From Massalongia carnosa (lineage: Eukaryota), in NCBI GenBank assembly GCA_965645245.1, contig OZ287080.1, forward strand, positions 558,001 through 622,000: DNA of 64,000 bases, read 5' to 3'. Within the stretch, counting starts at the first letter, position 1, and each line of letters opens with the position of its first letter. The translations under genes were made by a program, and so were the position numbers. Positions 4,598 to 51,202 of this stretch are shown here, piece by piece. The notes beneath the pieces were generated by a model. That model was not told where the DNA came from, did no database searches, and saw nothing but the letters and a program-made list of their open reading frames with translations.

Positions 4598-5700
4598 GTG
4601 AGATGTGAAGTTGAGAATAACGTATGTGTGCATAAGGATACTCATCTGAAGGCCAAAGTTCAAGGCGCGCATCAATATCTTTCTGCTAAAGGAATTCCAC
4701 ACGACGTGCGCGATATTTTCAAAGAATTTGGTGTCAGATCCGAAAGAGCAGGATATAAAATGCTGGAAGAGGAAGCATCGTCACGAAAGCGGCATCATAT
4801 TTCAGAAATAAATGACACTCGAGGTCGCAAATCAAAAGTCACTGGAGAACAAGTGCGAGAGGCTAATCAAATTCTACAACAAAGTGATTTAGAGCTCGAA
4901 GAAAAGATATATACTTGGAAACAAATTGCAACGGAGGTAGGAGCTGAAGTGATAGATCGAATCATGCATAACATTCTTCGAAAGACTTTGAATTATGAGA
5001 AATGCCTGACCTGCGTGAAAGAATGACTTGATGAGACTCCTATGAAACGAAGAGTTGAATATGCTTCGGTAATGAAAGCAAGATATCCCAAATCAGAAGA
5101 CTGACATCGAGTTCGATTCAGCGACGAAGTGCACTTCGGACACGGTCCCGAAGGTCAATTGTGGATAATTCGTCAGCCTGATACTCGATATCGCTGGAAT
5201 TTTATTCAGCATCGTGATCCTCCACCCGAAAAGACTCGAAAACGAATGCATTGCTGGGCTGCAGTCGGGTTCAATTTCAAATCTGATATCATATTTTACG
5301 ATGTTCCGGGCAACAGCAATGGTAAAATGACTCATCAGGTCTACATCGACTCCATTCTCGAACCTGTAGTCAAGCCGTGGCTTGACAGAGACGACGACTT
5401 CGTTTTGGAAGAAGATGGGGACTCCGGACACGGCACCGGTAGAACGAGAATTGCTGTGAAAAAATGTAAGGAGGATCATCATTATTTCAATTGTGCATCA
5501 TCACCCGATATGTCCCCCATTGAAAACTGCTGGCAACCGATTAAACAGCATGTTCGTAAATATCCACATTGGGATGATGCTACTTTGAAAGAACTGATTC
5601 GGGCTAGTTGGGACCGTGTTTCTCAGGAGTTCATAAATGAAAACGTGTTCGTTCCATGCCTGAACGACTGCACAGTGTGATTGACAGTCACGGTGCAATA
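4598..5700 (+). mobile_element. Tc1/mariner-superfamily (DDE) transposase relic, pseudogenised
   Basis: Catalytic motifs FSDEVHF, LEEDGDSGH and SPDMSPIENCW. In-frame TGA stops at about 5024 and 5102 sit where Trp is expected. No complete TIR pair seen. Confidence 0.85.
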
Positions 5701-11629: not shown

Positions 11630-13082
11630 TACGGATCAGAAGAGAACAGGAAACAGAAATCCATTGATGTGTGGAAAAATATGTCAGCACCATTATTCAC
11701 CTACCATATAGCCTCAAGTAAATCTCGTCGCTGATTTGTTGAAGTTGAAGCGATAGTGGTCTTATTCTACCTCCAACTCGAGAGCTCTGGATAACGGGAG
11801 CTAGCATGTGATTCGCACGTTGCAACCCCAAGATCCAAGCCTTAAGAACCCTCGTATCTATCCCTTCCGTGCCGTTCTCCCTGAAGTCTATAACTGCATG
11901 AATGACAGCTATTCTGCATGTTTTCATGACTGGAGAAATGGATCGAGGCCCTTGACTCCATCGGCCGGCTACTGTTTCTCACTTCTTCGACAATGAGCGG
12001 GGGAAGGTGATGACGTGATAGTATTTATCGTAACGCAAATCCCTTTTTGAGCAAAACCTTTCTACCGACATGACCGACAGACCCATAGGGTTCGCGTTTG
12101 GGGTATCGACGAACAATCTATCTGGCTTCGCGAATTGCATCTGCAATAAGTTATGCCGCGGCCGTTCAGTAAAGATCGACATAGATACCTTCGAGGAACT
12201 TTTGTTTAGTTTTGATCTATTCGGAACTCCGCGTGGGGTGGACTAGAAGGGGGGGGGGTTGGTGGTACGTATGTGCAGGAAGGCGGTGCAGGAGGTTCCT
12301 CTTATCATGTAGAAAGAATAGATAGGAGAAGTTCTTTCAGACGGTCATCAATTAAAGCAAAGCAAGGTCAACTGTGTCAGTGTCAGTGTCGCAGAGAGTT
12401 CGTGTCTTTCGTATTAATATGATCTTGGTTGTTTTTTCTACACGTGTTCTGTGTTTGTCTTCTGCTCGCCCGAGGTCATCTATGTAACTACCCCTGACTA
12501 CTCATTCTCAATATGCGTAAATACTATCCATGATTGAGCAATTCTCTTCTTGCTGTTGTTCTGCTGCTACTCGGTTTTGCTGGAAGTTTTTTTAATAATG
12601 GCTCTATTTTGGCAAGGCGATTGGTTAAGTTGATGCGCAACTTCGAGAGTGATAATACAAAGTGTCAAAAGATCGATAATTCACGTTTTCTTTCCTCTCT
12701 TTTTACTTTCCTCATTTGAACATCATATTTCTTCAATCCTCGGTCTTCATCGACTATTCATGTTCATTCCATTCCAGCAGTATTTTTCGCCCAAGTTGAA
12801 TGACTTTAAACGTGAACTGACTTTACAACCGTCTATTTTTAAAAAAAAAAGAGAGCCCGGGCCAAAAAAAGCCGACATATCTAGCGGAAACCTGACCCTC
12901 GGGGTGAAGTCATTTGTTATCTTATGTTTCGAGTAAGTAATCCTTGATGAGCAACGCTCTTTTGTTTGATGAGACAGATATTCCTTCAGGTTAACCTTAA
13001 CATGTGATTCATGAAATTTGATCGCATCCTGCATCATTCTTTCCCATCGAGAACCCCTCCCACCTCTCCACTGTATACCAGG

Positions 13083-14336
13083 ATGCACCCAATCGACGTC
13101 ATCTACGCAATTGGCCTATCAGGCTACATCAACAAAGATTTCGAGGCCGCGCGCCAGAACGAGGATAACAACACATCTCTAACCCTCGTTAGGCCAGTGA
13201 CACCCGGTTTTAAGCAAGCCGTTCAAGCCGGAAATGTCATCTCCATAATGCTGCGCTTGCCCAACGGCACCGTAGCCATTGGTGAATGCGCCGATGTGAT
13301 CTTCTCCGGTGCGGCAAGCCGTGATCCGCTGTTCGTTCCGGAGCAGCATTTGCCAGTTTTGGAGAATGTAGTGCGGCCCTGGTTACTGGAGTGCGATGTG
13401 AGTTCTTTCCGCGCGCAAAGCTACTGGGTCGATACGCTGCGAGTGGACGGAGTGCGACTGCATTCGGCCGTTCGGTATGGTCTAAGCCAAGCCCTTCTTT
13501 CGGCCACAGCACTGGTGCACCACTGTACTGTGGCAGAGGTCATTGCACGGGAATGGTCGCGGTCGATCCAAGAGCGTCCGATTGATATCCTTGTCTCGTG
13601 TCACCGAGGCGATCAACTTCAGCTGGAGAGGATGATCATGAAACGCGCAGCGCTACTTCCGCACGCTTCCTTCGTGCATGTGGATGATCTGGGAGTTAAT
13701 GGATCTAAATTACTAAGCTATATTGCCGCGGTTGCGAAGAGCGTTTCTCGGCTTGGGGCAAGAGATTATCATCCACGGCTGCATTTTGATGTTTATGGTA
13801 CTCTGGGGGATTTTTTTGATCGAGCCGGCGATGAAAACGAGCTTCTGTCGTTCTTCGAAAAACTCGCGCAAGCCGCTGGACCATACGAGCTTCTCATCGA
13901 ATCTCCCATCATCGCGCCTACCAAGGCAGAGCAGCTGAAACGACTCTCGCAGCTCCGGCAGCAGCTCGCACGGCGTGGAATACGCGTCAAACTCGTCGCA
14001 GACGAGTGGTGCAACACTCTCGACGACATCAAGGACTTTGTGGACGCGAGCGCCACTGACTACGTGCAGATCAAGACGCCGGATCTGGGAGGGCTTGAAA
14101 ACAGCATAGAAGCGGTGCTGTACTGCCAGGCCCAGGGGGTGGGCAGCTGCTTGGGCGGCTCGGGCAACGAGACGGACGTCTCGGCGCGGATCACGGCGCA
14201 GATCGCGCTAGCAACCGGGCCGGATTTCCTGCTGGCGAAGCCTGGTATCGGCGGCGATGAGAGCTTGATGATCATGACCAACGAGATGATACGCACGCTT
14301 GCGTTGGTGAGAAACTGGCGCGAAGTGAGAAAATGA
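13083..14336 (+). CDS. mal: Methylaspartate ammonia-lyase (beta-methylaspartase; enolase superfamily), intronless, 417 aa
   Basis: Motifs SRDPLF, LHSAVRYGLSQALL, LPHA, HFDVYGT, IESP, VADEWCNT, QIKTPDLGG, GG-x-x-NETD and LAKPG...NEM match bacterial MAL along the whole length. The ATG at 13083 (MHPIDV) aligns with the bacterial N-terminus. Confidence 0.93.
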   Translation: MHPIDVIYAIGLSGYINKDFEAARQNEDNNTSLTLVRPVTPGFKQAVQAGNVISIMLRLPNGTVAIGECADVIFSGAASRDPLFVPEQHLPVLENVVRPWLLECDVSSFRAQSYWVDTLRVDGVRLHSAVRYGLSQALLSATALVHHCTVAEVIAREWSRSIQERPIDILVSCHRGDQLQLERMIMKRAALLPHASFVHVDDLGVNGSKLLSYIAAVAKSVSRLGARDYHPRLHFDVYGTLGDFFDRAGDENELLSFFEKLAQAAGPYELLIESPIIAPTKAEQLKRLSQLRQQLARRGIRVKLVADEWCNTLDDIKDFVDASATDYVQIKTPDLGGLENSIEAVLYCQAQGVGSCLGGSGNETDVSARITAQIALATGPDFLLAKPGIGGDESLMIMTNEMIRTLALVRNWREVRK

Positions 14337-17300: not shown

Positions 17301-20250
17301 TTGCAAAAAATCTTACGAGCCCAAGTTCCAGCTCGCATTCTCTTCTTAGAATTAATATCAGAATCAATCTGCCATATCGATATTCTACCGCTAATAATAA
17401 TAATAAGATCACTATACATAATAGCAAAATACTCTCCATTTGTACTTGTTGCAAAGTCGGAGATCTTGCCCTGAGAAACCTCAGAGTCAACCGCAGGTGG
17501 TAGACAGCTTCCTGTCTTCACATCTTGAACATAAAGAGTCTCGTGGTATGTTATAGAATCGTCAGCTGTTATAAAGACCTGGCGCATGTGATCATAGATG
17601 AAAATCCCTTGGCCCGATGGCACATGCTGGAGCTGAAATGAATTTATCGGTGACATCTTGCCCTGTGCTCTGAGAAGAGTCTGATCGTCATACAGCATTT
17701 GTTTGTGCTCCCTGGTTGTAAAATGACCGTGATTCTGGTATGTTTCGCCAAGATCGTTGGAGGAGAAGATTCTATGCATGTCTAGAATATAAATTTCCCA
17801 TGGACGATCTGCAATAAACATACCGTAATCATTGACTAGGCGAAGAATCATGGAGCACCAATTACTTGAAAATCTGTAGTGGTCAAGGAAACCGGATGAA
17901 GCTTCATGCATCTCATTAGAAGCCCATTCGTAGACTTCTTCAAGTCTATAACGTACGCGCTCGAGAAAGCTAGATGAGTCTAAAATGAGACATGCCTCGA
18001 TCCAGTAAAATGCCACTGAAAAATCAAAAGTCCTTTGAAAAACTTTAGCAGCCTCATGGTTGCTGGCTCCTTCACAGTCAATAAGATGTAATAGCCAGTT
18101 GAGACTTGCGTATCTAATCAAAGGACTCTGTCTCAGTCGATCCTGAAGTCGCTCTTCATCAACTCGAAGATCTAAGCGATTTGTTTTGGTATCTAAAGCT
18201 AAGATTGGCTTTGTGAGGTTTTGAGACATATACTCCAGACTGGTCAATGTTAGCTCCAAGCTAGCTGCCATAGGGTCCACTAGGAGTTGTGTGTATTGTT
18301 CGGCAGCATCAGTCAAATTTTTTCTGTCCAGTAGATACTCTTTCACCGTCGCGTGAATGACTTCTATGACTCCATCATGAACCATCAGTAAAGAACCGCA
18401 GGCTAACTCAATATCTTTGATGGCGTATGAAAATGACTGCCTATCTGTAAGTAAGGTATGCCCTTCCCTTTGATAGAAAAATGTGAGTACTTCAGAAAGT
18501 TCCTCCAAACGGAGCGGGCGTTATAAGGTAGCTAATTTATATTCGTAAGCAACAGTTTCTAGACAAAATTCCCACTTACAGAAGCAGATACAACCCAAAT
18601 AAATACCTTCTTTGCAAGATTCATTGTCGGCTCTTTAAGCGATTCGCTCAGCCTTTTCAGGATACTTTTGTAGATGGCAGGTAACCCCTTTGACAATGTC
18701 TTCATAGTCTCCTCTACCAGTTCTACGGAAAAGCAAGCCTTGAGATCCTTCAACATAAGGTAAACCCATAAAAACATACCGCCGTGGCTTGCAGAAAGTT
18801 TGGTAACGATCATGTCATGGACCAAACGGTGACCTAGAAAGGGGTTTTCGATAGCTCTGTTCCGATGAAAGTCTTAATATCCTCATTTATATATTCTGGT
18901 CGAATCTCAATAGTCAGTTCTTTTGAAAGCAGTTTATGTAACTGAACCTTCTTTCGGCTTGTTATTATTATTTTGATGTCATTCAATCTGGAAAGATCTG
19001 TCAAACTTTGAATCAGCATTTTAGGTTTCTTGCATTCATCCAGAGCATCTAGTATTATGATAGGCTTGTTCATCTTGCTAATGTGTGCAGCGGAAAGTGA
19101 CCACATGATTTCGAAGTCTACGCCTCGCTGTTGATCGGAGTCATGCATCGCTTTTTCAATATTATTGCTTAATACACCAAAGTCTGCTAGGGCTTTCATG
19201 AACCGGAGCAATTGATATAGAAGCGATTAGATGATAGGCATTGCTTCATTCTTATCCGCATCTGAATCTTCACAGAAAAAATAGAGAACATTGTGAGACA
19301 TCTGGTTAGCACGTTCTTGTTGATAATAGTCTATCAAATAGGACGAGAGCACTGTCTTGCCCGCTCCCGGTTTGGTATGGATCCAGAGCAGACGCTCTTA
19401 TGATACAAGAGACTTGGAGAAGTTTATAAACTGGGTGTTGTTTAGCAACCAGAGACAAGTATTTGGGTGTCGTTTTTTCCTTGCTGCCTCATAATCTTTT
19501 TTGTAATATTTTACATCATGAGTGGCTGATGGCGAGAGCCATCTTATGAGTTCATTCTTCAGAGAAGAGCTTTGTGTTTCTGAAATGGTAAGATTCATAG
19601 CTTGTTGATCGATCATGGCAAACTTCGATTGCACTATATGTTCCGCAAGTGCATTTTCTCCGATTCAAGCTCCAGTTATGAGCATATCAACTTCAAGAGC
19701 CTGAAACTCTGAATCATAGCTGCTCCAGATTCTCGAGTATTTCCAGAGCCTGCGACGTCGATAAAATTTGCAAGCTCGCGTCCAAAACTTAAGAATAGAA
19801 ACGTAGAAAGCACAAGTACAATCCATTACTAAGCTAGAGTCCATGAGAGTATTATTATATATTTCAACGCGTGGGAGACACTCAATCATGCGATTAAGTG
19901 CTTCTCATAATCTCTCATATTCTTCTACTGCATCTTGCACGATCTGCAGTTGATAAAAAGGATTAGCGGCATATCCCCTAAAAGTAATATCCATTCAGAA
20001 CAAGACCCAGGACAGATAGAAAAAAAAGGAAATCATTTGAGAAAAGACCCATTGATTGATTGATTTATTCTTATTCCGATATGACACCGGCCGAAGGCCG
20101 GCCCATGCGGGCTGTCTATGTTTATCATACAAGGAAAACCCTTCTTGGGAATAAAAACCCCGTAGACTACGCACTACCTCCGGAGCCTCGCTGGCAACAG
20201 GCTGCTCTCTGTGATCGTTTTTCTTTAGAATCCTTGACGAAAATGAGAAG

Positions 20251-23200
20251 TTATATCTCGTATAACATTTGCGATGCTAGTGAGAACTGTGTTAACAAGT
20301 TTGCTTTTATTATCCATGCAGTTAGCTTTTTCAGCATTTTCGACGAACGCGTAATCGTCCGGTAGTCGTGGGTGCCCAATTGTCTGAGCAGCTCATATCT
20401 GCCTTCGATTAGTCTGCAGTGTAATATGATGTGTTTGGCAGTCTGTTTCTGCCAGCCACACGAGCAAGCTGGAGTCATAGCTCCCGGAACCCGACGATTG
20501 AACAGGAAGTTTGCCAAACCTATTTTCTCAGTGCGGATTTGCGTGGTTAGCGCGCTTTCCGCCTTCATCAAGTTGTCATGAATCTTCAATCTAGTTCTGT
20601 TGAGTGGTCCGAGCTGTGCCTCTGTTGGGTAGGGAACGCGGTCCTGATACGCCTTCCACCTGGTCTCCCAACGCTCCTTGATTCGTACTGTAATGGTCTT
20701 TGCGTGCTTTCCGATAATTCGGCGTGCCGTGATGTATTTCTCGAGACGGACAGGGTCGGGTCCTGACCAGGGTCGGGGCGGCGGCGGTATTGCGGCTGGG
20801 GCTTCGTTGTTTAGCATCTTGCTGGCCCATTCGTGTTTTAAATCTCCTAGGGTGGGGCGTTGTATTCTTTTGCGTCCTGCCTTGCCTCGTAGCTTGTTCG
20901 CTATTGTGCTGCAGGCAGTGGTGATCAGTTTCGCTTGCCCTGAGGCCCGTAGGCGGTATCTTGCTTTCATCTGCAGATGATCCAAGTGTAGCTCCATAGG
21001 GGCGATGAAAGTTTCCGCTTCGAGAACCTCGACGGGTGTTGCTTTAAACGCTCCTGCCACAGTGCGTAGGCATTTGTTCTGCATGACACTGAGTTTGGAC
21101 ATCGTGGCCTTGTTTTTCTTGATTTCCTTGGGCGTGTGCCACACGGCGCTTCCGTATGTCATTGCCGGGCGGACGACGGAGGTGTAGACCTGCCGGGCCT
21201 TTGCGAAGGATGCTCCCCAGGTGGATGCCGAGATTTTTGTGAGCGCTAGCGACTGCGACGTCATCTTTTCCTGCGTCTTCCGTATATGAGCTCCCCATTT
21301 TAGTTTTGTGTCGATTTGTAGGCCCAGTACTCTTATGTCCGTTTTTGGTTCAATCAGATTGGTTTCAATTTGAATAGTGGCCGTCATGTTGAATTTCTTT
21401 GGATTTCTTGACAAATGAATGAGTTCATATTTATCCGGTGCAAATACGGAGCCATGCCGTGTCGCCCACAATTCGCATTTCCTGTGAATTCTTTCAAGAG
21501 TTCTGCAATTTTCTTCCGTGCTTTTACCGTATGCCAACACGTTTACGTCGTCTACGAATCCCAGCGCACTCGTGTTCGTGCCGGGTCTCTGGCATATCTC
21601 TAATAGGTCCGCGTTGTAGAACAGATACAGAATAGGGGAAATGGGCGAGCCTTGAGGAATGCCCGTGCGCACTGCGAACTCCCCGGTTGCTCGCCGATTT
21701 ATTGCTAATGTGGTTTTCCTATTCTCCAGAAAGCTTGCTGTCCAGTCTGTGATCCATTTCGGAATTTTCCTTTTCCGTAGATTGTGTATTAGCCTACGGT
21801 GAGACACCGTGTCAAACGCACCTGCCACATCCATGCTGAGTAGGGTTGCCACCTTGTCGTTGCCTTGTCCCCATACGGTGTATACCTGTTCTGTGAGAAG
21901 CTCGAGTGCGGACTCGGTGGATCGCCCTCGCCGAGCACCCATTTGCGTGTCGGGCAAGAGCCGATGCTGTTCCGCTATGTGGGTGATTTTCTTTGCGATG
22001 ACCGCTTCTAGAACTTTACCCATTGTGTTCAGGAGAGCTATGGGCCGATATGCCTTTGGGCTGGTGTTGTCTTTCTTTCCCGGTTTTTTGAGCGTTATCG
22101 TGTTCGCTCTTTTGAACTCGCGAGGATGATACGCTTGCGTGACGCACGCCTGAAATAAAGGGGTTAGCAATTCTGCTAGCTTTGTAGAGCATGCCTTGAG
22201 GATTTTGTTGGTGATCCCGTCAGGACCCGGAGCCTTGTCGGACTTGAGGCATTGTATGTTTGCGATCACTTCGTTCTTTGTGATCATCATGGGACAATCC
22301 GCGGCAGCGGGGTAGAATGACCCAGGTATGTCGCTCAGGTCCGCCGGCGGTGGTGGGGGAAAGAACTTGGCTTTCAGCATTTCCGCTTTTTCTTCGAACG
22401 TCTCCGCCGTCTGCCCTCCGTGCCTCAGTGGCGGCATTTTCGGTATCTCGCGGGGCTTCTGGCTTCTATCTTTTGCCCATCTTGCCAGCTTCCATATGCC
22501 CAGCGGCGACTCGGTGACTGCACTGATCTCTTTGCGGAATGAGAGCATTTTTGCTTTTCGGATTATCTTTTGCTTCTTGTCGTTGGACTTCATGTACGCT
22601 TTCCAGTCGTCCATGTGACGCGATGACGACCAGGAACGGCGCAATTTGCGAGTCTCACGGATGGCGCGATTGCATTCTTCGTTCCAAAAAGGTTTCGCGT
22701 ATTCGCTGGGTCTGGCCCAGGGGACGGAGGCGGCTATGATTTTCTGAAGATACTCTTGGATTGTCTGAGCGTACTGGTCAATTTCCTCGGCGGAGCGGGG
22801 GTGGGTGACGGGCGGGGCGTTGCTTTCTGCCTCTCTCAGTTTCTCCATGTTCAGCAGTTTCCATGCTCTGCGCTTGACTTGCGTTAGCTGTTCACTACCG
22901 AGAAGAATGCGGGTGGAAATCGGGATGTGATCAGAGGATTGGTTCATTTCCGGTCTCGACATGCAGTGTTCTAGTCTTTCCGTCAGGAATTCCGACATAA
23001 ATACTAGGTCTATGGTGCTAAAAGAGTTCCGAGCCTCCCATGTAACGGTCCCTTTGGGCAGTGTAAGTGAGAGATCGAATTCTTCTACTATATCCAGTAG
23101 TTGGTCCGCGGCTGCGTGTTGCGTTGGCCTTGTGACTCCGTTCCAAAATGGATGGTGAAGGTTGAAATCGCCGAGGAGGACGTGCTGTGCATCTGCGGCG

Positions 23201-23613
23201 AGTTGCTGACGAACAGCCGGGAGCGTGGAGGGGCTGTCTGTGGATGAATAAGAAGACGGGGACGGGTTATACACGTTATGAATGTGCAACGTTCTCGTAA
23301 CACCGTCGGTGCTCACGTTCAATTTCAACGTGCATAGGTCTGCGGTTGGGAATTCTACTTCCCAGCTTTCCGGGTCGATTTTCTCGTTGACGTAGAAGCA
23401 TACGCGTGTGTCGCCGCCGGGGCGATATAGAAGGTGGAATCCGCTTTGGTGAGAGCTAAGAGTGGTCGGGGCGTGCGTGCTCCGCCATGGTTCCTGTATT
23501 GCTATAACGTCGTAGTCCTGCGTGTTTGAATCTGCCAAAAGTGGTATCATTGTACTTACTCGGTCGTTTCTGACGTTGTACTGTAGTATGTTAATGGAGT
23601 TTGTGTCCTTCAT
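20251..23613 (-). CDS. LINE ORF2: APE endonuclease + reverse transcriptase + C-terminal CCHC zinc finger
   Basis: ILQYNV, IAIQEPW, GDFNLHH and SDH (APE). KAPGPDGI, YRPIALL, GIPQGSPISP and FVDD (RT). CSCG...HIILHC (zinc finger). Confidence 0.95.
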   Translation of the reverse strand: MKDTNSINILQYNVRNDRVSTMIPLLADSNTQDYDVIAIQEPWRSTHAPTTLSSHQSGFHLLYRPGGDTRVCFYVNEKIDPESWEVEFPTADLCTLKLNVSTDGVTRTLHIHNVYNPSPSSYSSTDSPSTLPAVRQQLAADAQHVLLGDFNLHHPFWNGVTRPTQHAAADQLLDIVEEFDLSLTLPKGTVTWEARNSFSTIDLVFMSEFLTERLEHCMSRPEMNQSSDHIPISTRILLGSEQLTQVKRRAWKLLNMEKLREAESNAPPVTHPRSAEEIDQYAQTIQEYLQKIIAASVPWARPSEYAKPFWNEECNRAIRETRKLRRSWSSSRHMDDWKAYMKSNDKKQKIIRKAKMLSFRKEISAVTESPLGIWKLARWAKDRSQKPREIPKMPPLRHGGQTAETFEEKAEMLKAKFFPPPPPADLSDIPGSFYPAAADCPMMITKNEVIANIQCLKSDKAPGPDGITNKILKACSTKLAELLTPLFQACVTQAYHPREFKRANTITLKKPGKKDNTSPKAYRPIALLNTMGKVLEAVIAKKITHIAEQHRLLPDTQMGARRGRSTESALELLTEQVYTVWGQGNDKVATLLSMDVAGAFDTVSHRRLIHNLRKRKIPKWITDWTASFLENRKTTLAINRRATGEFAVRTGIPQGSPISPILYLFYNADLLEICQRPGTNTSALGFVDDVNVLAYGKSTEENCRTLERIHRKCELWATRHGSVFAPDKYELIHLSRNPKKFNMTATIQIETNLIEPKTDIRVLGLQIDTKLKWGAHIRKTQEKMTSQSLALTKISASTWGASFAKARQVYTSVVRPAMTYGSAVWHTPKEIKKNKATMSKLSVMQNKCLRTVAGAFKATPVEVLEAETFIAPMELHLDHLQMKARYRLRASGQAKLITTACSTIANKLRGKAGRKRIQRPTLGDLKHEWASKMLNNEAPAAIPPPPRPWSGPDPVRLEKYITARRIIGKHAKTITVRIKERWETRWKAYQDRVPYPTEAQLGPLNRTRLKIHDNLMKAESALTTQIRTEKIGLANFLFNRRVPGAMTPACSCGWQKQTAKHIILHCRLIEGRYELLRQLGTHDYRTITRSSKMLKKLTAWIIKANLLTQFSLASQMLYEI

Positions 23614-25232
23614 AAACATCCTTCTTCCATTACGTCCGTTGCAGGAGCGGTGCGGGTGATTAGTCCTTGGTCGTCGAGGGGGGGAGGTGTGTCGGGGGTC
23701 GGCGGGGAGGGTTGCAGCGGGTGGGCGGCGGGATTGGTGCGGGTGGGGGCGGGTGTTGCAGCCATCGTCGTTGACGTGTTGGGTGGTCTGCCTAGAATGG
23801 GCTTTGCCATTGCTCTTTGCATGTTCATGGGCTTCATGATCTCTGTGTCCTTCCACGACGTTCCTGTTGGGCGGCTTGGGCCTGCCGGCGATACTTCATG
23901 AGAGCCGGCTGGGGCGGTTTTTCTTTTCTTGCTGCTGGCAACTTTCGGGATACCATTGACGGGGCTTTCCGTTGCCTCTCCTAGTGCTGCATTGCTTTCT
24001 TTGTCAGTTGGGGCCTGGGACGAAAAGATGAATGATCGTGCTACGATCGGGTCGCCCGTAGCGAAGAGCTGCGACGAGCTTTTCCTAGCCTTCTCTATCT
24101 TGCTCATTTCTTGTATCCTGAGTTTGCATGTGGGGGCCCACGCTACGTGGCCTCTCTCGTCGCAGCATGCGCATCTCTTCTGTCTACCGGTTGTTTCCGG
24201 GTTGCATTCGTTGGTCGGATGCCCGCCGGCGCAGTGGCCGCACGCCGTAGGATTGCGGCAACGTTTTCCTATATGTCCGTATTTGTAGCAGTTAAAGCAC
24301 TGCGTCAGCTTGCAGCTCTTCGCAAATTTTTCGCAGTTCTTTATCTCGTGGTCGACCAGGAAGCCTTCGTTAATGAGGCGGTTGGCCATAGCAGGGGTCT
24401 CTACTTCTATGTGCAGCGATGAGTATGCCTTCTTTTCTTTGATAGCCCTGAACGACCAGGCGATCCTCGTGATTTTTAGGCCTGGGTGTAATCGTGCATT
24501 AGCTGTCTGCAGGTACTGTATGATTTGATTCTGATTGGTGGCATCGATATGTTCCACCTTGACTCCGCTAGCTCGTACTGCAAAGGTGCGGCGCTGGACC
24601 GTGGCTGACGCTGCGACCGCGGTGATCCACTTGGTGTTCTCGTGTAGGGTCTTCTTGATCTCTGCTGATTCTGCGTGGATCCGTATGTCCCCGCTTGTGA
24701 GTCGAGATATTCCCACTATTCCTCCGACATTTTTCTGCAGCGATTCCACCAGCTCCTGGGTGGGCAGCTGTCTTACTCTTTCTCGATCGGCCTCATTGGT
24801 GAACCGTAGTGTGACCTCCCGGGCTCTTTTGGCCTCGCTAGGGGATAGTTCTTTGGTTTTTTGAGGTCTTGGGTGTCTTAGATTGTACGTTGGGTTGGGC
24901 CCGACTTGGGCTCGGGATGTCGATGGGGTTGCCGCGGTGGCGTAGCTTGTGGTGGGCTCGTTGTTCTTTCTAACGCCTTCCATGCGATTGAGCGCGTTCT
25001 TTATGTCCCGTAGGGATTCCGCCACCATGCTGGTGTCTTCATTTTCCGAGTTAATATGGATCTGCGTCTGCAACGTGGCTTTTACCTCATTTAACAAAGA
25101 GTGCGCCACTGGGTCTCCTGAGCTGTTGCCAAGCTTTAAATACTCATCTATCTTTGCTCCCAAGAGCTTTATCGTCTTCTCCTGCTCCTTCTTGCGTCTC
25201 TCGCGGTCTTGTGTAGATTTGTTGATCATCAT
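23610..25232 (-). CDS. LINE ORF1 gag-like protein with zinc knuckles
   Basis: QCFNCYKYGHIGKRC, CGHCAGGHPTNEC and CACCDERGHVAWAPTC; N-terminal coiled coil. Confidence 0.92.
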   Translation of the reverse strand: MMINKSTQDRERRKKEQEKTIKLLGAKIDEYLKLGNSSGDPVAHSLLNEVKATLQTQIHINSENEDTSMVAESLRDIKNALNRMEGVRKNNEPTTSYATAATPSTSRAQVGPNPTYNLRHPRPQKTKELSPSEAKRAREVTLRFTNEADRERVRQLPTQELVESLQKNVGGIVGISRLTSGDIRIHAESAEIKKTLHENTKWITAVAASATVQRRTFAVRASGVKVEHIDATNQNQIIQYLQTANARLHPGLKITRIAWSFRAIKEKKAYSSLHIEVETPAMANRLINEGFLVDHEIKNCEKFAKSCKLTQCFNCYKYGHIGKRCRNPTACGHCAGGHPTNECNPETTGRQKRCACCDERGHVAWAPTCKLRIQEMSKIEKARKSSSQLFATGDPIVARSFIFSSQAPTDKESNAALGEATESPVNGIPKVASSKKRKTAPAGSHEVSPAGPSRPTGTSWKDTEIMKPMNMQRAMAKPILGRPPNTSTTMAATPAPTRTNPAAHPLQPSPPTPDTPPPLDDQGLITRTAPATDVMEEGCL

Positions 25233-27863
25233 TGTTCGGGAATCGAGAAAAGACCCATATGATATAGATAAGAATTCATTTGTATCCCTACTATCTAGTC
25301 ATCTAGCTTCGTCGGGCGGTGAATATCTAGCTACCGTTCCCCACAAACGCTTGAAGCCTATTTGAATTAAGATCAGAGTCGCCACAGAAATTCAATAATA
25401 CAATTATGGCACAAGGGTGGTTGTTTCGAAAGCGGTATTATAGAAAAGTGAGCAAGGTGATTAATTACATACTGTTAGAACAAATTTGATACTTCCCCAT
25501 AGCAGACATCCCGGCGCCGGGCTTCCTTGAGCCAACAAGTCAATCGAAGAATTGAATCGCTGCAATCGAGCAAGGCCATTATTGACAACCGCTGCAACTT
25601 TCCTATATTTACTTTTGATCTGCTTCTGCTGCCACTTCTCAATCTCGTGCACCAGATCTGCCGGCTCGGTTGGCATCTTAATCTGATCTTGATCCTTCTG
25701 CGGCAACGACTTTCGGTGCGTTTTTAAAGCCTTCTTCCATGCGTGCATGCGTCGACGACTGACGTGTCGCATGTGCTTGTGGCTGAATTCATGGTCGTGT
25801 TCGGAGCCGATGATGACGAGAGAGTTACCATTCTAATAGCAGCCAGCTTGATGAGCGAGCTTTCAAAATCTCAACAGCAATGACCGAGTGATGTTGAGAG
25901 TGAAGCGAAGAAGCCTTGCAAAAGAAGAGCCTACCCTCAGTCCCATGCTGATCGCCCCTCCATTCTCCAAAACTGCTAAGTTAGTTGAGTTGTTTACGAG
26001 TGAGAAACGTACTAGCTCAAAAATCCCAATGAATTAAATCACCAATTAACGCTGTATCTAGTGGATTTTGCATCACCTCATTCTTCCTGCAGCGATGAAC
26101 TATCAAACTACAGAGAAAAATAGCAGCAGCATGTTCTCCTAATCCTCGGTTAAGTCACGTGCCTCGGCGTGAGCCTAGGCGTTTCTTCTCAAAACATGTA
26201 TGAGGCCTATGGTACACTAGGAACTTATGCATTATTGCCCTGGAGGCTGGAAGGAAATAACTCGAAATACGAAAGCTACCATACCGTTTCGGCATTGGAA
26301 AACTTGACGTCACTGGCATAAAAATACGAAAGCCTGTCCAGCGAGATGGATAGCGGCACTGTGAGCCGCTATCAACTGTTGAAGACGACACAACATTCAT
26401 TCTCACCTCCTCATGAAACTTCATATCCCATGTAATCATAATACGGCCAAACAACTCACTGAAAATATCCTTGAATAGGATTTTTGTTATTTCGCTCTGG
26501 CTTCTCGTAACCGATTCAGCATGGTTAAGAAATATAAAATCCCCAAGTTCTCATGTCGTTCTTCCCGCTATATCCTCCTTGACAGGCTTACGCCGACATG
26601 TTAGAATGACGAAGTCTTTTTCTTCCTTTGGTCGTTTCCTTCAATATCTCTTACCACGTTTGATCATTCCTTCTTATTCAACCTCTAAGCTGCGAAATAG
26701 TTTGCTAACTCTTCTTGGTACCTTTGTGTAAGTCCATGTCTAATATATTACTTTGCATTTTTCGCTCAGAAAAATCGGGGATTGAAGACAAGATCGATTT
26801 TTCGGACATAGTATTCGCTGTGATGGGGGTTGGATATGAAAATGATATATCTGAACATGGGATAGCGAAAAGGAGAATATTCTTGCAGCTAAGAAAATTA
26901 AAGTCTGTGAAGGAAACCCCGTGGACGAATTCTGGCATTTTCCCACAAGTTCTTCTTCCATTTCCCGCCGAGGTAATGAACCCCTCTGGTGAATAGGATC
27001 TGGCCTCAATTTCCAGGTACCGTGAACCAGGAACAAAGTAGATATAGTCCTCCAAACCCGCTACATGTGAAGCAAGCAAGGCCTCAACCATACTTTCCGT
27101 ACCTTCCCATTCTCGTACGCAAACGCCCGGACAACGCTCACCACCGCCCCTAACCCTATCCAGCCGATTTGCACTCTGCACAGCGCCCGGCTCCGAGTTC
27201 CCTGCTAGCGCTTACTGCACCTACCCCTGAGTGAGGAGATGTTAGGAGATGCCCAGGATGATGGCGTGGGCTCTTCCCATCAGCGCGGCGGGGCATTGGG
27301 TTTCAAGAAGGAAGTTGCGCAGGAGTGAAGCCTGATGCGTACTTCTTACCATTGAGGCTGGAAATGGGAAGGCGAGAAGTATTTGTGAACGTTGATGTCA
27401 TAAAGTAGCGTTTCTGGGGCAATGGCTATGATGTCGTGGCGCGCAGGAGGTTTTGTTGAGTTATATACCTAGCTATGTAGGTATACAGTCACCCTGCACT
27501 CCATCAATTCCTAGTAAGCTAGGTACTCATTCCGCTCTGTTGCCACTGGTTATTCCGCTAAACATTCCTATCAGTGACGGCACCTAAACAACTACTCATC
27601 TCGGTATCTAGTTGGAGGGGTAGCCGGGCATGTGCCTAAGCCATATCCTTGATACTATGTTGAGTCTAGTCAACAAGAGTCTCCTGTGTCATTCAACTTA
27701 CCTGTCAAAATTTTACAAGATTTCTAAAAGCCTCTTCGCTCATGAAACTTTTTTTTATAATTACCAAGCACCCCGAGGGCTACAAATAGCCAAACGGGTG
27801 GATGAGAACATTGGTAGGAGTTCTCTTGGTTAAGCTGCATGCTTGAACAAGGAATAAATGCAC

Positions 27864-32123: not shown

Positions 32124-34756
32124 ATGGCGAGGAAAAAGAAAAGTGCGGAATGCCAGGATCTGACAGCCTGGGTCTCATTTGGGGAGGAACCTGGAACTTC
32201 TGTGTTAGAAGATGTTGGAATACTCGCTTAGCCCCATTAGATCTAGCTCAGCCCTGCAGGCTGCCATGACTGCTATAAGCAGTCACCTCCGTAGTAATTT
32301 CAACATTATGCCGTCAACTGTTTATTTAACAGGTTATGAGTCCCGGGTTTGTGCTTTGCGCCCCTCCGACGGCATCCTTCATGCATAGACTACGTACTAT
32401 CATGTCGTATCAAGAAGATGATGAGGTGAAAGTTCAGACGTGGAAAGCGCGAAAACGAAGCGGAAACGACATCGAAAGGGATGAGAAACGAAGCGGAAAC
32501 GAAGCGGAAACGTCATCGAAAGTGGTGTACGTACGAAACGTGCTGAGGAGGACATCTACAATGGGCGGTGCCTCGAAGACTTCACATCTTGCATTACTGG
32601 TCAGATCAGCAAGGGGAGATAAAAGCCCTGCGATCAGGCCACCAACGTCAATGGTCTGCGGGAAAATGTCTAACAGAGACATCGAGAAAAGCCCTGCTCA
32701 GGCCATCAACAAAACACGTCCATAGTACTCTTCCCATCCACCCATACACTCACAAAAGCTACGTTTCGAGAGATGGTTATGGGTTTAATGAGGCTACAAA
32801 GCAGGACAACAAAAGACATAAGAAAGAACTACGTGCTTAGGGAAAATGGAGTCAGAGGGAGCTAGATTCGTTCCGCAAGGGGAGCGAATCGGACACAGCT
32901 GGATGAATCACTTCGCAAGGGGAGTGATAAAAGCTGGATAGTTTCAATTTTGGAGGCGAAAGGGGAGCCACGCTCGAAGGGGAGTGTTGGAATACTCGCT
33001 TAGCCCCATTAGATCTAGCTCAGCCCTGCAGGCTGCCATGACTGCTATAAGCAGTCACCTCCGTAGTAATTTCAACATTATGCCGTCAACTGTTTATTTA
33101 ACAGAAGACTGGCCTGAAAAGTCAAACCTAAATCATGACCAGGGCACTGAATCCATAACAGACCCGGAGGCTCTTGCAAGTGTCTCTACTCAGTCTCCCG
33201 ATGGCTTTGACATGAGCAAGTCACCCCTACGGCCAACTATCGAATTCGGCCATACTAACACCGTTAGATACCCCTCAATCGCCGCAATACGAGGAACTCT
33301 CGGGCCATATGGACACACTTAGGACCCATGAATTTCCAAATAGTCTACAGTTGTGAGTCTCAAACATGACTTACCGTCGCTCTTTTACTCAGTAGGCTGA
33401 TGGAGTAACTGGGACAGCGAATATCACTCTCCAATCATCCACATATATGTTGGAGACAAGCCGATATGCTTTTTCGTCCATAATGCTGTGCTCGCTCAAT
33501 TTCCTGTACTGGCACGAAACTGCAATCTAGTAGATGGAATACAGACTATAACGCTACCAGAAGTACCGCCGCAACTTTTTGAGCTACTGGTGAGATATGC
33601 ATACACAGGCCAATATCAAAGCGACTTCTTGGTAGGAAACGGAAAGGTCGATGGGACAAACTTTAGAACACACGCGCTCTTGTATTGTCTTAGTCGCAAG
33701 TTTGGGTTGTGGGATCTGGCAGAAAAAACCACTAGGGAAATTGAAAGTATAGGCAAATTTGATTTCCGCTATGTGACCGAGATTGCGCGAGAAGTGTATC
33801 CGAAGCTGCGGGATGATGATATCTGGTTCACCGGGTTCTTCAAAAACGAGGCTGGCAGGGCTATGATAGAAAACAAAAAGCTTATACAAGAGCCATGGAT
33901 CTTGAGTATCTTCCGGGACGATGGTGGCAGATTGGCTGTCGATCTTTTCACCACACTTATCGCTAGCAGCTTAAGTAGCAGCGCCATCATCGTAGAAGAA
34001 TTCATGGCCTCTAAGAGTCTTTCTCAGCCTGTTCTAGACAAGGAAGAAAACTCTCACTGCGCAAATTGTGCACAGCGCTTGGAGTCGCTTGAAAAGAAGA
34101 AAATCGAGCCTGATGTACCTCCCGAATCTCAATTTGCCGTCGAGGCATGCGCAACCAAAGATGTACCTGCTGACGAACCTCAAAGTAAATTTGATTGGGA
34201 TTTTCCGGCTGCGCAGAAGGCAGAGAATCCGGATGAAACAGATGCTGCTGAGGTAAAAAACACAAATGAACCAGCTGATTCTGGCGAATCAACACAGGCA
34301 GCAGAATCATGGGGCATCAATCTTGACACTTCTGCTGAAGCTCCTCGTGAAGCTCTTGGTCTTCAAACTTGCACATATGCAGAAGAACCACAGGTGGACG
34401 CGCCGGATGTATCTGAAATCGATAGCTGGGGAACTTGGGGCGGTTTCAGCAAGAAGTCAAAAGCTAAAAAGAAGAAAAGGCATGAAATAGATTGGACCGT
34501 TTGGGGTCAGGCACCGGTTGAAGACATGCCAGTTGACGAGACATTGCCTGACGGGGCAGTGGCTGAGAGTGTAGAGGCTGAAGGAGTAAAACAAGCCGAG
34601 ATAGCGGGAGTGTCAGAAGCCGAGCCCTACAGCGTGCATTGCCGATTTCGTCTCGAGCATTTTGCCAACGAGAAACAATGGAGCCAATGCGCCATGTGTC
34701 GTCAAGAGCTATCTGCTCTCGCTCTCAGAATGTTGCCGGAAGGAAGCTGTGGGTAA
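32124..34756 (+). CDS. BTB/POZ-domain protein; exon 1 interrupted by an LTR element
   Basis: Removing 32213-33103 plus one TSD restores MARKKKS...VLED-WPEKS. Putative GC-AG intron 33216-33267 and GT-AG intron 33353-33417 lead into the BTB motif FEYHSPIIHIYVGDKPICFFVHNAVL...FELLVRYAYTGQY...HALLYCLSRKFGL. Confidence 0.75.
32213..33103 (+). mobile_element. Non-autonomous Copia-type LTR retroelement (TRIM-like), 891 bp
   Basis: Identical 119-bp LTRs (32213-32331, 32985-33103) with TG...CA ends. 5-bp TSD GAAGA (32208-32212, 33104-33108). PBS GGTTATGAG immediately after LTR1. Polypurine tract GAAGGGGAG before LTR2. No RT or integrase. Confidence 0.92.
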
Positions 34757-35177
34757 GCTCGGTGGGTGCGTCGCTTTTCGATTGAGTCTCTGTTGAGTCA
34801 GCAGCTAGCGATGGTTTGTCGATGATGGTTACGGGTATGGGAAAGGGGCTATGATGAAGGTTAGGAACGGAGTTAGGTTCTTCTTGGTAACGGATTACGA
34901 GCGTGTAGTGCTGAGTTTCAAGGGATGGTAATGATGCTGATGATGATGATTCGTGCGTGCGTATGATAGCTTTTTTAAAAAAAATCAGCAACCAATTCAG
35001 TAACTCGAAATTTTCATGACTCCAAACCCTCCTTTTCGTTCATTCGTGCAATTAAGAAAACTCCTCGAGATCATACTCTATAAAGATAAGATAATAAGAT
35101 TCTAAACCAAATAAAAAATAACAAACAAGTAAAGATAAAATCATGAGAAAGAAAAACAAAAAATAGATATCAAGTAG

Positions 35178-35312
35178 AGCCCTCGGCGGGGGTCGAACCC
35201 GCGACCTTAAGATTAAGAGTCTCACGCTCTAACACTTAAGTCAGCACGTGTGGTTCAATATTGGTATTGTAGGTAGAAGAAATATCATACCTGCCGATTG
35301 AGCTACGAAGGC
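35178..35312 (-). tRNA. tRNA-Lys-CTT: tRNA-Lys(CUU) with a 62-nt non-canonical GT-AG intron in the D-arm (exons 35312-35291 and 35228-35178)
   Basis: The spliced sequence GCCTTCGTAGCTCAATCGGCAG|AGCGTGAGACTCTTAATCTTAAGGTCGCGGGTTCGACCCCCGCCGAGGGCT pairs in all four stems. Anticodon CTT at 35217-35215. A box and B box (GGTTCGACCCC) intact. T-run terminator at ~35158-35163. Confidence 0.93.
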
Positions 35313-37229
35313 TTGTAATAGTCGAGTACTTCGTTATTATATTATTAATAACATTTTATGTTTATTATTATGTTATAGCACCATTACAAGCTGCTCTAGA
35401 AACTTGGTACGTATGTAACTACCACCAAAATCTAGAGTCCAACTTGCGCTCGGAGTGTTTGTAAACTCGCGAGGCCTCTCCTCTCTCTTGAAGCTCTGCT
35501 CTACATAAATAACTAGCCGTTCGCAACCCTTCAAGCCACAGCCTCCAGGATTTTCCAGGACCTTTTCCAAAGAAATCCTTCCTACTCTATGCAATTAAAC
35601 TATTAACGAATACCTAGACAAATCTTCGCAGTCACCAACCACTAACTAACTAACTAAATAAAAGGAGGAGGCGAACCTCCGTACAGATAGTGTTCGTTGG
35701 CAGTGTGGCTATGCAGCCAGAAATCCGTGATATTGGTGACAGCTCAAGGACTAAATGTTACCGTCTCTACAACGCCTTCGTGGAATATTTACTGTTTAGA
35801 ACTAGAACTAGATAGGGCATTACCAGAGATGGCCACAGCTCACCCTCCCGGGCACTGGGATCTCCTACTTGGTTGGTTATGAAAGGCACAGGTATAGTTA
35901 GTTTCCAAATCCAACATATCAACCCGTCTCCACCGAGGATAACTATTTATGGCACTCGCCAGCCCAACAACATTGCCGTCATCAACATCCCCTCAACGCT
36001 CGGGGTTTGCGATACGCATGATACCTATGTAGAATTAACAATCCTAAAATCAGGTTGTCCCTCTCTCCGTCATTCTCTACGGCAGGTTGTTAGTCAATCC
36101 CTCCCTCGCACTTCGCACAGGAAGCCGCAAATAACTAGTTACTCTCTCCAACACCGAAGCTTGGACTTTGGAGGCAGGGTAAGAGAATGTGCAGCACTGA
36201 AGAGGGAACGGAAAACGGCTGATGTAGGAAAATATATCCTATACCGTAGCTTCAGGCGTACAGGGTATTATGATACGAGCTTTTACGTTCGGATGTAACT
36301 ACTGAGAGCAGCATCTGGGGAGCTTTGCACAACAGGCGGATGGGAATCCTACTGGGTGGCATATGTATGGAACGGATCAGCGTTAGTTAGGTCATTGTTG
36401 TTGTTTGGTAGCTTGGATTATATAGAATTTACACCTGCAGAAGCTCAATCCTTTTGATATCGATCACGATCCCCAAACACAAGCAAGTACCTAGTTTTTC
36501 CGATGGGGAAAGGGGCAGAAAGGGGCAGATATCAGCATAAAGAACCAGCATTTTATTTCTTTTTCTTTTTCGGGTTTGTTCCTGTGTAGCTATTATAGTG
36601 TCTAGACAAAACTGGTCGTATACATAGTTACATAGAGTATGCGGAGTGAGTGAGTGAATCAGTAAACCCTATTGTCCTGCTCTGGATTTCCTAAACTAGG
36701 ACTCTCGGGGCATTGTATTAGGTTGGACTAGGCACAATGGTGTGCAGAGATATGATGAAAAACGGAGTTGGGGAAAATTGAGAGTGCGCCAATAATTAAT
36801 CAGAGAGAAGGGATTTTCAATCTTAAGGGGAGAGGAGCGGATTTCGCCTAAGGAGGCCCGGCTCGTTAGCTCACACGGCTGGGTGGAGAAGATCTTTTTT
36901 AAGATTGGAGCCGTTGCGTACATTGTACATACGTACGGAGTACTGTGTACTCTGTATCTCCTAGCCATCCACCCAATTAGGATGCACATGCCTTGACCGC
37001 GCGTCGTATGTAACGGGAAAGGTCCCAGTTTTGGGGAGATTTTGGGGGCTGGGAATGGACATATACCGCTTGCTCATTCGCTCTCTGTCAATTCTCCTGA
37101 TGGGAAACAGCCCTTTTAAAACTCACGAGGAAAAGAAAGTTTATCCAGCCCTTAAGCCGAAGACGCACCCTCACACATAATACTGAGACTGTATTTTCAA
37201 ATTTTCGCATAAGAGTGAACAAAATAAAC

Positions 37230-49163: not shown

Positions 49164-51202
49164 ATGCACGAAATCCTTACCCTCCAGCTCGGCCACCGCG
49201 CCAATCACCTCGCCACCCACTTCTGGAACACGCAGGAATCCTATTTTTCCGCCTTCCCCACCAGCGCAACATCTCCCAGCAATGAAGCTCCCGCTCCATC
49301 TGCCACCCCTCCCCCCAGCTCCTTGGTGGACCACGACATCCACTGGCGCGAAGGGATCAGCGCGGTGGGCGGGGAGGATACGTATACGCCACGGACGCTG
49401 ATTTACGATCTCAAGGGCGGGTTTGGCGGGCTGAGAGGGTGGGGTGCGGCGGGGGATGTGGGGGCAGATGATGGGAGGAATGGCGCTTGGTGAGTAGGGT
49501 GCCTAGATCTGCGGGGCTTGTTCGTTTGGGACGGTTTTCGGTGGATATGGAAGGGGGGGTGTTTGTCTGTACTTGGCTATAGCTAACTGGTATGAAATTC
49601 ATGATAGCTAGGGACGGCAATGTCACGCTCGTGAAACAACCCCCCATTCCGCCTTCCGAATATCAACTCGGCCTCGAGTCCGGACTCGCGATCCCCCCCA
49701 GACCGAGACTGGACACGGTGCGCTACTGGTCGGACTACAACCGCGTGCTATACCACCCGCGCTCCATGGTGCAGATCTACGACTACGAGCTCGGATCGTC
49801 GCTGTTGCCTTTCGAGTGGTGGGAGAGCGGGGAAGAGCTCTTCGCGAGCTTGGACCGGGAGGTGGACGTGCTGGATCGGGATCTAAGGGTGTGGGCGGAG
49901 GAGTGCGATGCCCTGCAGGGGATTCAGGTAGTGGCAGGAACGGATGATGCGTGGGGTGGGTTTGCGGCGAGGTACGTAGAGAGGATTCGGGATGAGTTCG
50001 GGAAGATTGGAGTGTGGGTATGGGGAGTCGAGGAGGAGAGGGGAAGGGACGTAAAGGTACGTTTTAATTGCTAGGTGGCTGAATAAAGGAGTATGGAGAG
50101 TTATTGCTAACTTTTTGGAAAGGTGAAGCAGATGTTAAGGACGGTCAATGCTGCCAAATCGATGTACGAGGTCTCCATGCAGGCTTCAATGTATATTCCG
50201 CTTTCGATTCCATCGTTGCGGCTACCATCATACCTGGACCTAGATCGAGGCTCGATTTGGCATACTTCAGCACTACTGTCGATGGCGCTGGAAAGCATAA
50301 CATTGCCCTCGAGGCTTAGGCCTGATGGTGGGAAGCGTGGGCTGTTGGATGATATGGAAGCTGCGTTGAATGTCAACGGCAACCAGCGAATCGGCAAGGT
50401 CCAGATGAGCCTTCCTGATCCCTTGGTACCAAAAGGTCAGCAGCGAGTGGCTGGGGAGACGGAGGACGATAGGACACGAGGGCCGAACACACAGGGTCTG
50501 TTTCATGAGGACGCGTTCTTAGCCAGCGCTGCCAGCCTTGACATGGATTTCTTCTATGGGGCAGCTCCAACATCTAGGGGTTTCCATGCTCACAGCGAAA
50601 AGAAAGATCACGTGTTTGGACAGGTGGAGATTATGAGAGGGAATACCGGGCCGACACACGAGCAGGATGACGGCCATGCGGATGGCAACACGAGAAAACG
50701 CAGGCGATATGCTTCTCTTCCAATACTCGAAAAGTTAGTATCTCCCCATCCCATTGGTTCCAACCTTTCCATTTCGAGATTGCGCATGTCATTGCCTTTC
50801 TACACTTGGAATGGTGGCAGCGCACAGCCATTGGGGCAGGTTAAAGCAGGCCCGTAACATGCATGCTGCGGAAACATGGCTGCATTCTGCACCTATTACC
50901 TGCATCCCCACTTGCCTCCACTAACTCTTCAAATCAGGTATCGCACCAGCCTCCAGTTCCCCATTCTGAACAGCTTCCCCGCCATTTTTGCCCACCGATC
51001 AGACTTTTCGCAATCCATAGGCGTACATGCTGCGCTTTCAACCACATCTAAAGTTTTGCCACGAATCAAGGAGCTGCGTGGGGTGGTGAGCATTATGGTC
51101 GGCTTGGCGGAGAGAGAGGCGCTCTTGAATGGCCTGGGTGAGATCGGTGAAGGGTACACGGGAGGATGGGAGAGTGGGTCGGATGACGATAGCGATGACT
51201 GA
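49164..51202 (+). CDS. DML1: Dml1/Misato tubulin-FtsZ-like mitochondrial distribution protein, multi-exon
   Basis: [69 protein letters not shown]...DDAWGGFA, ending [12 protein letters not shown]. Introns visible between ORF pieces. Confidence 0.92.

Follow-up and report, generated by a model that had tools for sequence, protein, structure and literature searches.

Introduction

The introns of eukaryotic nuclear genes are currently kept in separate classes: spliceosomal introns belong to transcripts of RNA polymerase (Pol) II, with U snRNA genes and some rRNA genes as the exceptions, and tRNA introns lie at position 37/38 and depend on TSEN and tRNA ligase for their removal (PMC12530127, PMC4090602). 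In a 2025 paper, spliceosomal and tRNA introns are treated as unrelated classes (PMC12530127).

Among the exceptions, the U6 gene of Schizosaccharomyces pombe and other fungi, whose product is a Pol III transcript, contains mRNA-type introns that are spliced (Tani & Ohshima 1989, 1991, cited in PMC5855946). The U6 introns are explained by reverse splicing, since U6 is part of the spliceosome's catalytic centre. A 2018 review on U6 lists U6, U2, U5, U1 and rRNA as the non-coding genes with spliceosomal introns, and tRNA is absent from this list (PMC5855946). Lichen-forming ascomycetes likewise have ectopic spliceosomal introns, which were described from their rDNA (Bhattacharya et al. 2000, cited in PMC8527467). 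An rDNA intron of Cladonia grayi is 57 bp long, and yeast spliceosomes removed a lichen rDNA intron from Pol I transcripts (PMC8527467).

Nuclear tRNA genes that are interrupted outside 37/38 are known from the red alga Cyanidioschyzon merolae and from the nucleomorphs of cryptophytes and chlorarachniophytes, where introns are found in the D arm and the T arm (PMC4090602, PMC3728597). Here we analyse a tRNA-Lys(CUU) gene that is split in its D stem by a 62-nt insert with the signals of an mRNA intron. It lies in a 64-kb stretch of DNA, which was analysed as a whole and is called the window below.

Results

The organism to which the window belongs was identified from its protein-coding genes. 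Pfam matches on 79 long ORFs gave the gene set of a filamentous ascomycete. The best named relatives of the DENND11/DUF4484 protein were all Lecanoromycetes: Lobaria immixta (68% identity) and Pseudocyphellaria aurata (66%), then Letharia, Usnea, Heterodermia, Lecanora and Lambiella. These homologues, together with the lichen-metagenome label of one of the sequencing runs used below (X4), indicate that the host is a lichen-forming lecanoromycete. In the Pfam-supported ORFs of the window, 94 of the 181 Lys codons are AAG, so that a tRNA-Lys(CUU) is needed.

Some other features of the window are recorded here. An intronless methylaspartate ammonia-lyase gene (13008-14333, plus strand) has 61-62% identity to its best fungal relatives (Aspergillus, Penicillium, Orbilia) and 58-60% to bacterial ones; the family is patchy, and the gene may have been acquired horizontally. 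A homology search with this protein resolved the host no further than Pezizomycotina. An intact-looking LINE-like ORF of 1214 aa with endonuclease and reverse transcriptase (20254-23895, minus strand) is flanked by pieces of fungal STAND/NLR genes (18837-19226 and 25464-25832, both minus strand), in which NPHP3_N NACHT-type and 'Goodbye' N-terminal domains were recognized. A DDE_3 transposase fragment is present at 5105-5677 (plus strand).

The tRNA gene occupies positions 35178-35312, exactly as given in the original prediction, and is read on the minus strand, which had been left unstated there; all features of the gene listed below are on this strand. Exon 1 (35291-35312, 22 nt) corresponds to tRNA nt 1-22 and contains the 5' acceptor strand, the 5' strand of the D stem, the D loop and G22. 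Exon 2 (35178-35228, 51 nt) corresponds to nt 23-73 and includes the anticodon CTT (35215-35217) and the discriminator T (35178). Nt 22 and nt 23 are separated by the insert (35229-35290, 62 nt), which we interpret as a spliceosomal intron of the U2 type. When the two exons were joined by coordinate and the insert left out, ARAGORN called tRNA-Lys(ctt) with 73 nt and a full cloverleaf, thus confirming the size and position that had been proposed for the insert. As had also been proposed, its exact removal restored the acceptor, D, anticodon and T stems with all pairs, and the cloverleaf was obtained only after this removal.

Because AG is found at both borders of the insert, the cut may formally be placed after nt 20, 21 or 22. 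Only one of these registers, with the cut after nt 22, gives GT-AG borders. The joined tRNA has 12 of the 12 invariant nucleotides that were checked (U8, A14, G18, G19, A21, U33, G53, T54, T55, C56, A58 and C61). The sole oddity of the cloverleaf is the 15/48 pair, which is A/C; this could be a first sign of decay. On its own, the insert does not form a stable structure (z +0.49).

The expectation that standard tRNA finders could miss the gene was borne out by the results of both ARAGORN and Rfam. ARAGORN reported 0 genes in the 64-kb window, and with the intron option it made a wrong call, a tRNA-Leu with a 43-nt intron. Rfam at the gathering threshold gave 1 match in the window, a partial tRNA of 32.6 bits at 35186-35243, in which the end of the insert is misaligned as the D arm. 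This misalignment is due to an identity of 8/15 between the 3' end of the insert and the 3' end of exon 1, which was not significant against shuffles. A scan of the 64 kb for the T-arm motif matched exon 2 alone, and this is therefore the sole tRNA gene of the window.

As a reference for the splice signals of the insert, we used five mRNA introns of the window that were anchored by homology and not by their signals: either by the continuity of a Pfam domain (Misato-like gene) or by tblastn with five full-length homologues (DENND11-like gene). Intron 1 of the Misato-like gene (49490-49611) has 122 nt and the signals GTGAGT..CTAAC..TAG; intron 2 starts at 50057 and has 66 or 75 nt, with GTACGT..CTAAC and an AAG or CAG acceptor. 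The three introns of the DENND11-like gene have 50 nt (GTAAGC..CTAAT..AAG), 44 nt (GTAAGA..CTGAC..TAG) and 53 nt (GTAAGA..CTGAC..CAG, with the branch A 13 nt from the end). The branch motif is thus CTGAC in two of the five introns, CTAAC in two and CTAAT in one. Intron 2 of the Misato-like gene (50057-50131, plus strand) offers a choice of in-frame acceptors, AAG at 50122 and, 9 nt further on, CAG at 50131, which are either alternative 3' splice sites or the result of an ambiguous Pfam alignment.

Two other approaches to local introns were given up and replaced by the homology-anchored set: a screen that joined ORFs, which produced 145 noisy clusters, and a loose intron pattern, which was not enriched across the window (175 matches versus 213.8 ± 20.8 in shuffles). 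An intron guessed at about 59440-59559 proved by tblastn to lie in one continuous exon and was rejected.

The donor, branch motif and acceptor that the original prediction had named in the insert were all present. The 5' splice site GTATGA (35285-35290) follows the exon sequence CAG; its G at +5 is shared by all five anchored local introns and its A at +6 by two of the five. The branch-site motif GCTGAC (35240-35245) covers insert positions 46-51, and the predicted branch A, at 35241, is 12 nt from the 3' splice site. The latter is TAG (35229-35231), an acceptor that is also found in two of the five reference introns. The insert shows one deviation, a U at donor position +4, where the local introns have A in four cases and C in one. 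Its 62 nt fit the sizes of the mRNA introns of the window (44, 50, 53, 66 or 75, and 122 nt), with which it had been compared before. The tRNA insert falls within the set of the five local mRNA introns.

The probability of such signals arising by chance was estimated with random 62-mers placed between the exons, where any register that restores the tRNA was allowed (2,000,000 trials per composition). GT..AG alone was found in 0.7-1.0% of the random 62-mers. The combination of GT..AG, G at +5, CTRAY 8-30 nt from the end and a pyrimidine at -3 had a frequency of 1.1e-4 with the composition of the flanks and 6e-5 with that of the insert. Moreover, of the 72 junctions in the mature tRNA just two are MAG/R proto-splice sites (the slash marks the junction), and the insert occupies one of them, CAG/A. 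The splice signals exceed by far what chance would produce. In its sequence, the insert has the features of a U2-type intron: an AG at the end of the preceding exon, a donor whose position +5 is G, CTRAY and YAG, a fitting length, signals above the chance level and a proto-splice site. We conclude that the anatomy of this locus is real, non-random and specifically spliceosome-like.

The insert could nevertheless be removed by machinery other than the spliceosome, namely by a relaxed tRNA splicing endonuclease with a ligase, or by the machinery with which lichen fungi remove group I introns. The non-canonical D-arm introns of Cyanidioschyzon and of nucleomorphs are in line with the former (PMC4090602, PMC3728597). 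The latter has its parallel in non-self-splicing group I introns that lichen fungi excise by an unidentified machinery (PMC8527467), and another study describes small putative group I introns of 56-81 nt in fungal and lichen SSU rDNA (PMC3160393). The insert resembles these small introns in its size, in its non-coding host gene and in its occurrence in a lichen fungus. Group I introns are preceded at the 5' splice site by an exonic U, in the G.U pair of P1, and end in G (or U) (PMC3160393). At our locus, the three registers place C, A or G before the cut and never the required U, so that no group I 5' splice site fits.

The archaeal-type bulge-helix-bulge (BHB) motif, which had been reported as not evident, was examined in its canonical hBHBh' geometry, that is, two 3-nt bulges with the splice sites and a 4-bp helix between them. 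This geometry failed in all three possible registers: the central helix had 1, 2 and 1 of the 4 pairs, and the flanking helices failed as well. In the precursor's minimum free energy (MFE) fold, both the acceptor arm and the T arm were preserved, and neither splice site was located in a 3-nt bulge. The canonical tRNA intron position is 37/38, whereas the insert is in the D arm at nt 22/23. The ruler mechanism of TSEN acts at 37/38, and TSEN can therefore not account for a cut in the D stem. Removal of the insert without the spliceosome would also leave its full set of spliceosomal signals and its position at a proto-splice site unexplained. We thus give this possibility hardly any credence and continue with the spliceosomal reading.

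As for the origin of the insert, a tandem duplication of a part of the tRNA was considered and rejected: alignments of the insert to exon 1, exon 2, the joined tRNA and the permuted tRNA were no better than those of shuffles (P 0.32-0.78). The window contains the insert only once, with just chance matches of 8-13 nt elsewhere, and there is accordingly no sign of a repeat family, such as an introner or another repeat, from which it could have come.

The gene has the elements expected for transcription by Pol III. The A box (tRNA nt 8-19, 35294-35305) lies wholly within exon 1 and the intron contains no run of four T, as had been noted before; the longest T run in the entire precursor is 3. The B box (35189-35199) is in exon 2. 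With the insert, the spacing between the A and B boxes is about 94 nt, a distance that TFIIIC would probably tolerate. A terminator-like T6 (35158-35163), followed by G and T5 (the whole at 35152-35163), begins 15 nt past the 3' end of the tRNA. Upstream of the gene, 35313-35360 is AT-rich (79% A+T over 48 nt) with a TATA-like run from about -38 to -22; by analogy with fungal tRNA genes, this region may function in TFIIIB/TBP binding. The ORFs on either side leave a gap of about 1 kb around the gene, and no Pfam-supported gene is located nearby on the same strand.

These elements bear on the question of which polymerase would make the precursor. The spliceosomal intron could be carried by a Pol II transcript and be spliced co-transcriptionally, after which RNase P and RNase Z would excise the tRNA. 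Spliceosomes normally assemble in connection with Pol II, and the gap of about 1 kb leaves room for a longer transcript. Yet the Pol III elements are complete and well placed, with T6 right after the gene, and no adjacent same-strand ORF or Pfam-bearing gene supports a Pol II unit. Furthermore, the spliced introns of U6 and rRNA show that Pol II is dispensable for splicing (PMC5855946, PMC8527467). For these reasons we give a Pol II precursor little credence, and a Pol III transcript is assumed for the spliceosomal reading below.

We then compared the contigs of four public sequencing runs with the window over positions 33300-36300, using a likeness threshold of 80%. Runs X1 and X3 come from the same study, which is possibly the source of the window, and X4 from a different one; X4 and X5 are both less than 1% diverged from the window. 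The locus was found whole in the contigs of X1, X3 and X4, that is, in two studies. In X1 and X3 a single contig runs unbroken through the locus, at a depth of 432 and 910, respectively. A joint that skips the insert was not present in the contigs of any of the four runs.

Other contigs of X1 and X3 with similarity to exon 2, including an uninterrupted alga-like Lys-CUU gene, had a depth of just 2-47, and therefore come from other members of the thallus. At the depth of the fungus, no second Lys-CUU-like gene was found in the contigs of X1 and X3 by this comparison, which an isodecoder less than 80% alike would escape. An identical second exon 2 would break a k-mer-based contig and a similar one would align at 80%, hence no intact synonymous copy is visible. 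The locus is possibly the only tRNA-Lys(CUU) gene of the fungus, as judged from contigs, which show presence better than absence.

One of the low-depth contigs with similarity to exon 2 (748 nt at depth 3 in X1; 412 nt at depth 5 in X3) matched window positions 35193-35228 with 6 of 36 letters different. It departs exactly at the border between exon 2 and the insert into non-tRNA sequence with neither a D loop nor a 5' half. This contig may stem from another thallus organism with a tRNA gene split at this very position, or it may be a fragment derived from a tRNA.

Run X4 differs from the window in 21 positions of 3001 nt (about 0.7%) and retains the insert. One of the changes is at intron position 33, outside the signals, one is at -3 upstream, and none is in the exons. 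This pattern is compatible with constraint but carries no weight at a divergence of about 0.7%.

A metagenome scan for interrupted homologues, in which the end of exon 1, a gap of 40-70 nt and the start of exon 2 were required, gave a single locus, and this was a false positive. The match on this marine contig was made by two adjacent tRNA sequences, and the Lys gene there is uninterrupted. The contig has a feature of its own: at about 340-445, between a tRNA-Leu(CAA) (236-317) and the uninterrupted tRNA-Lys(CTT) (455-528), the 3' half of a tRNA is followed directly by a 5' half. This pair of halves looks like a circularly permuted tRNA gene, a type that is known from picoalgae.

The copy number and the comparison between populations have to be weighed against the possibility that the tRNA gene is dead or dying. 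Intron-like DNA would then have landed in the D stem, either as a reverse-spliced or transposed intron or as an unrelated fragment with signals by luck, and AAG would be read by another gene or through wobble of tRNA-Lys(UUU). As a rule, a eukaryotic tRNA gene that carries an insert in its D or T arm is considered a pseudogene (PMC4090602), and the A/C pair at 15/48 agrees with such a view. In addition, the metagenome scan did not provide an orthologue that carries the insert, and the divergence of X4 is too low to judge the conservation of the exons. On the other hand, every invariant nucleotide checked, all stems, both promoter boxes and the terminator are intact. The full signal set would arise by pure chance only with a probability of about 1e-4, and the insert is single-copy in the window. 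Finally, no intact synonymous copy is seen at the depth of the fungus in X1 and X3, yet AAG accounts for about half of the Lys codons. The latter point matters because D-arm inserts have been dismissed on the ground that the interrupted gene is one of many synonymous genes (PMC4090602). The locus is like tRNA pseudogenes in having an insert in the D arm and unlike them in having full splice signals and no synonymous copy at the depth of the fungus. We consider a dead or dying gene unlikely, if by no means far-fetched, and prefer to regard the gene as functional.

Discussion

Taking these results together, the locus is probably a functional nuclear tRNA-Lys(CUU) gene with a spliceosomal GT-AG intron in its D stem. 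We infer from the sequence that the gene would be transcribed by Pol III, that the intron would be removed by the spliceosome and that the product would function as a tRNA. The lecanoromycete host counts in favour of the spliceosomal reading, since this group has known ectopic spliceosomal introns in its rDNA.

In the mechanism that we propose, Pol III would begin downstream of the AT-rich region, guided by the A box in exon 1 and the B box in exon 2. It would pass through the T4-free intron and the whole 135-nt body of the gene, and would stop at T6, 15 nt beyond the gene. U1 would base-pair with CAG/GUAUGA, and the branch A of GCUGAC would attack the 5' splice site. Exons 1 and 2 would then be ligated at UAG/A, which joins nt 22 to nt 23, and the intron would be released as a lariat. 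The D stem, in which nt 10-13 pair with nt 22-25, would be able to form only after splicing. Maturation would be completed by RNase P, RNase Z and CCA addition. Against this mechanism, pre-tRNAs fold quickly and are bound by La and RNase P, and to our knowledge the removal of a spliceosomal intron from a pre-tRNA has no experimental precedent.

The comparison with described systems shows which parts of this proposal are familiar. Like the U6 introns, the insert is a short GT-AG sequence with a branch site in a small, structured non-coding RNA gene of Pol III, and its removal would be needed before the product can fold. U6, however, forms part of the catalytic centre of the splicing machinery, whereas a tRNA is not close to this machinery. 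With the lichen rDNA introns the insert shares the lichen-ascomycete host, the short mRNA-type intron and a gene that is not transcribed by Pol II, but those introns interrupt rRNA genes of Pol I, whereas here a tRNA gene of Pol III is split into a 5' exon of 22 nt and a 3' exon of 51 nt.

Among tRNA introns, the cases of Cyanidioschyzon merolae and of the nucleomorphs are similar in that a nuclear tRNA gene is interrupted outside 37/38, the D arm included. The nucleomorph introns have only 3-24 nt and those of C. merolae depend on a BHB and an endonuclease, whereas the insert described here has 62 nt, no BHB and spliceosomal signals. As with TSEN introns, a working tRNA requires the removal of an intervening sequence, which in our case is located at 22/23 instead of 37/38 and has the signals of an mRNA intron.

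The original prediction had been made without awareness of any description of such a gene. We likewise found none in the full-text literature that was covered, from which most subscription journals are absent, so that an older report is possible. On the sequence evidence, the locus is best classed as a new case, a putative spliceosomal-type intron in a tRNA gene, within the known phenomenon of ectopic spliceosomal introns in other non-coding RNA genes.

If our reading is correct, the separation of the two intron classes would be breached by a tRNA gene that requires the spliceosome. It would mean that a structured Pol III pre-tRNA with a 5' exon of just 22 nt can serve as a substrate of the spliceosome, and that the odd intron biology of lichen fungi reaches from rDNA to tRNA. 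The locus would also reveal a gap in what tRNA finders detect: annotation by these programs would make a genome appear to have no tRNA-Lys(CUU).

A more far-reaching combination of ideas, which we regard as quite doubtful when taken as a whole, is that in lichen-forming fungi ectopic spliceosomal introns extend across the genes of all three nuclear polymerases, that the single Lys(CUU) gene of this fungus can be matured by the spliceosome only, and that decoding capacity is throttled by, and tied to, splicing capacity. A hidden class of tRNA genes, in fungi and possibly in other eukaryotes, would then have been overlooked by annotation pipelines. If this were true, it would provide a counterpart at the tRNA level to the idea that rDNA introns slow ribosome production, which has been connected with the slow growth and desiccation tolerance of lichens.
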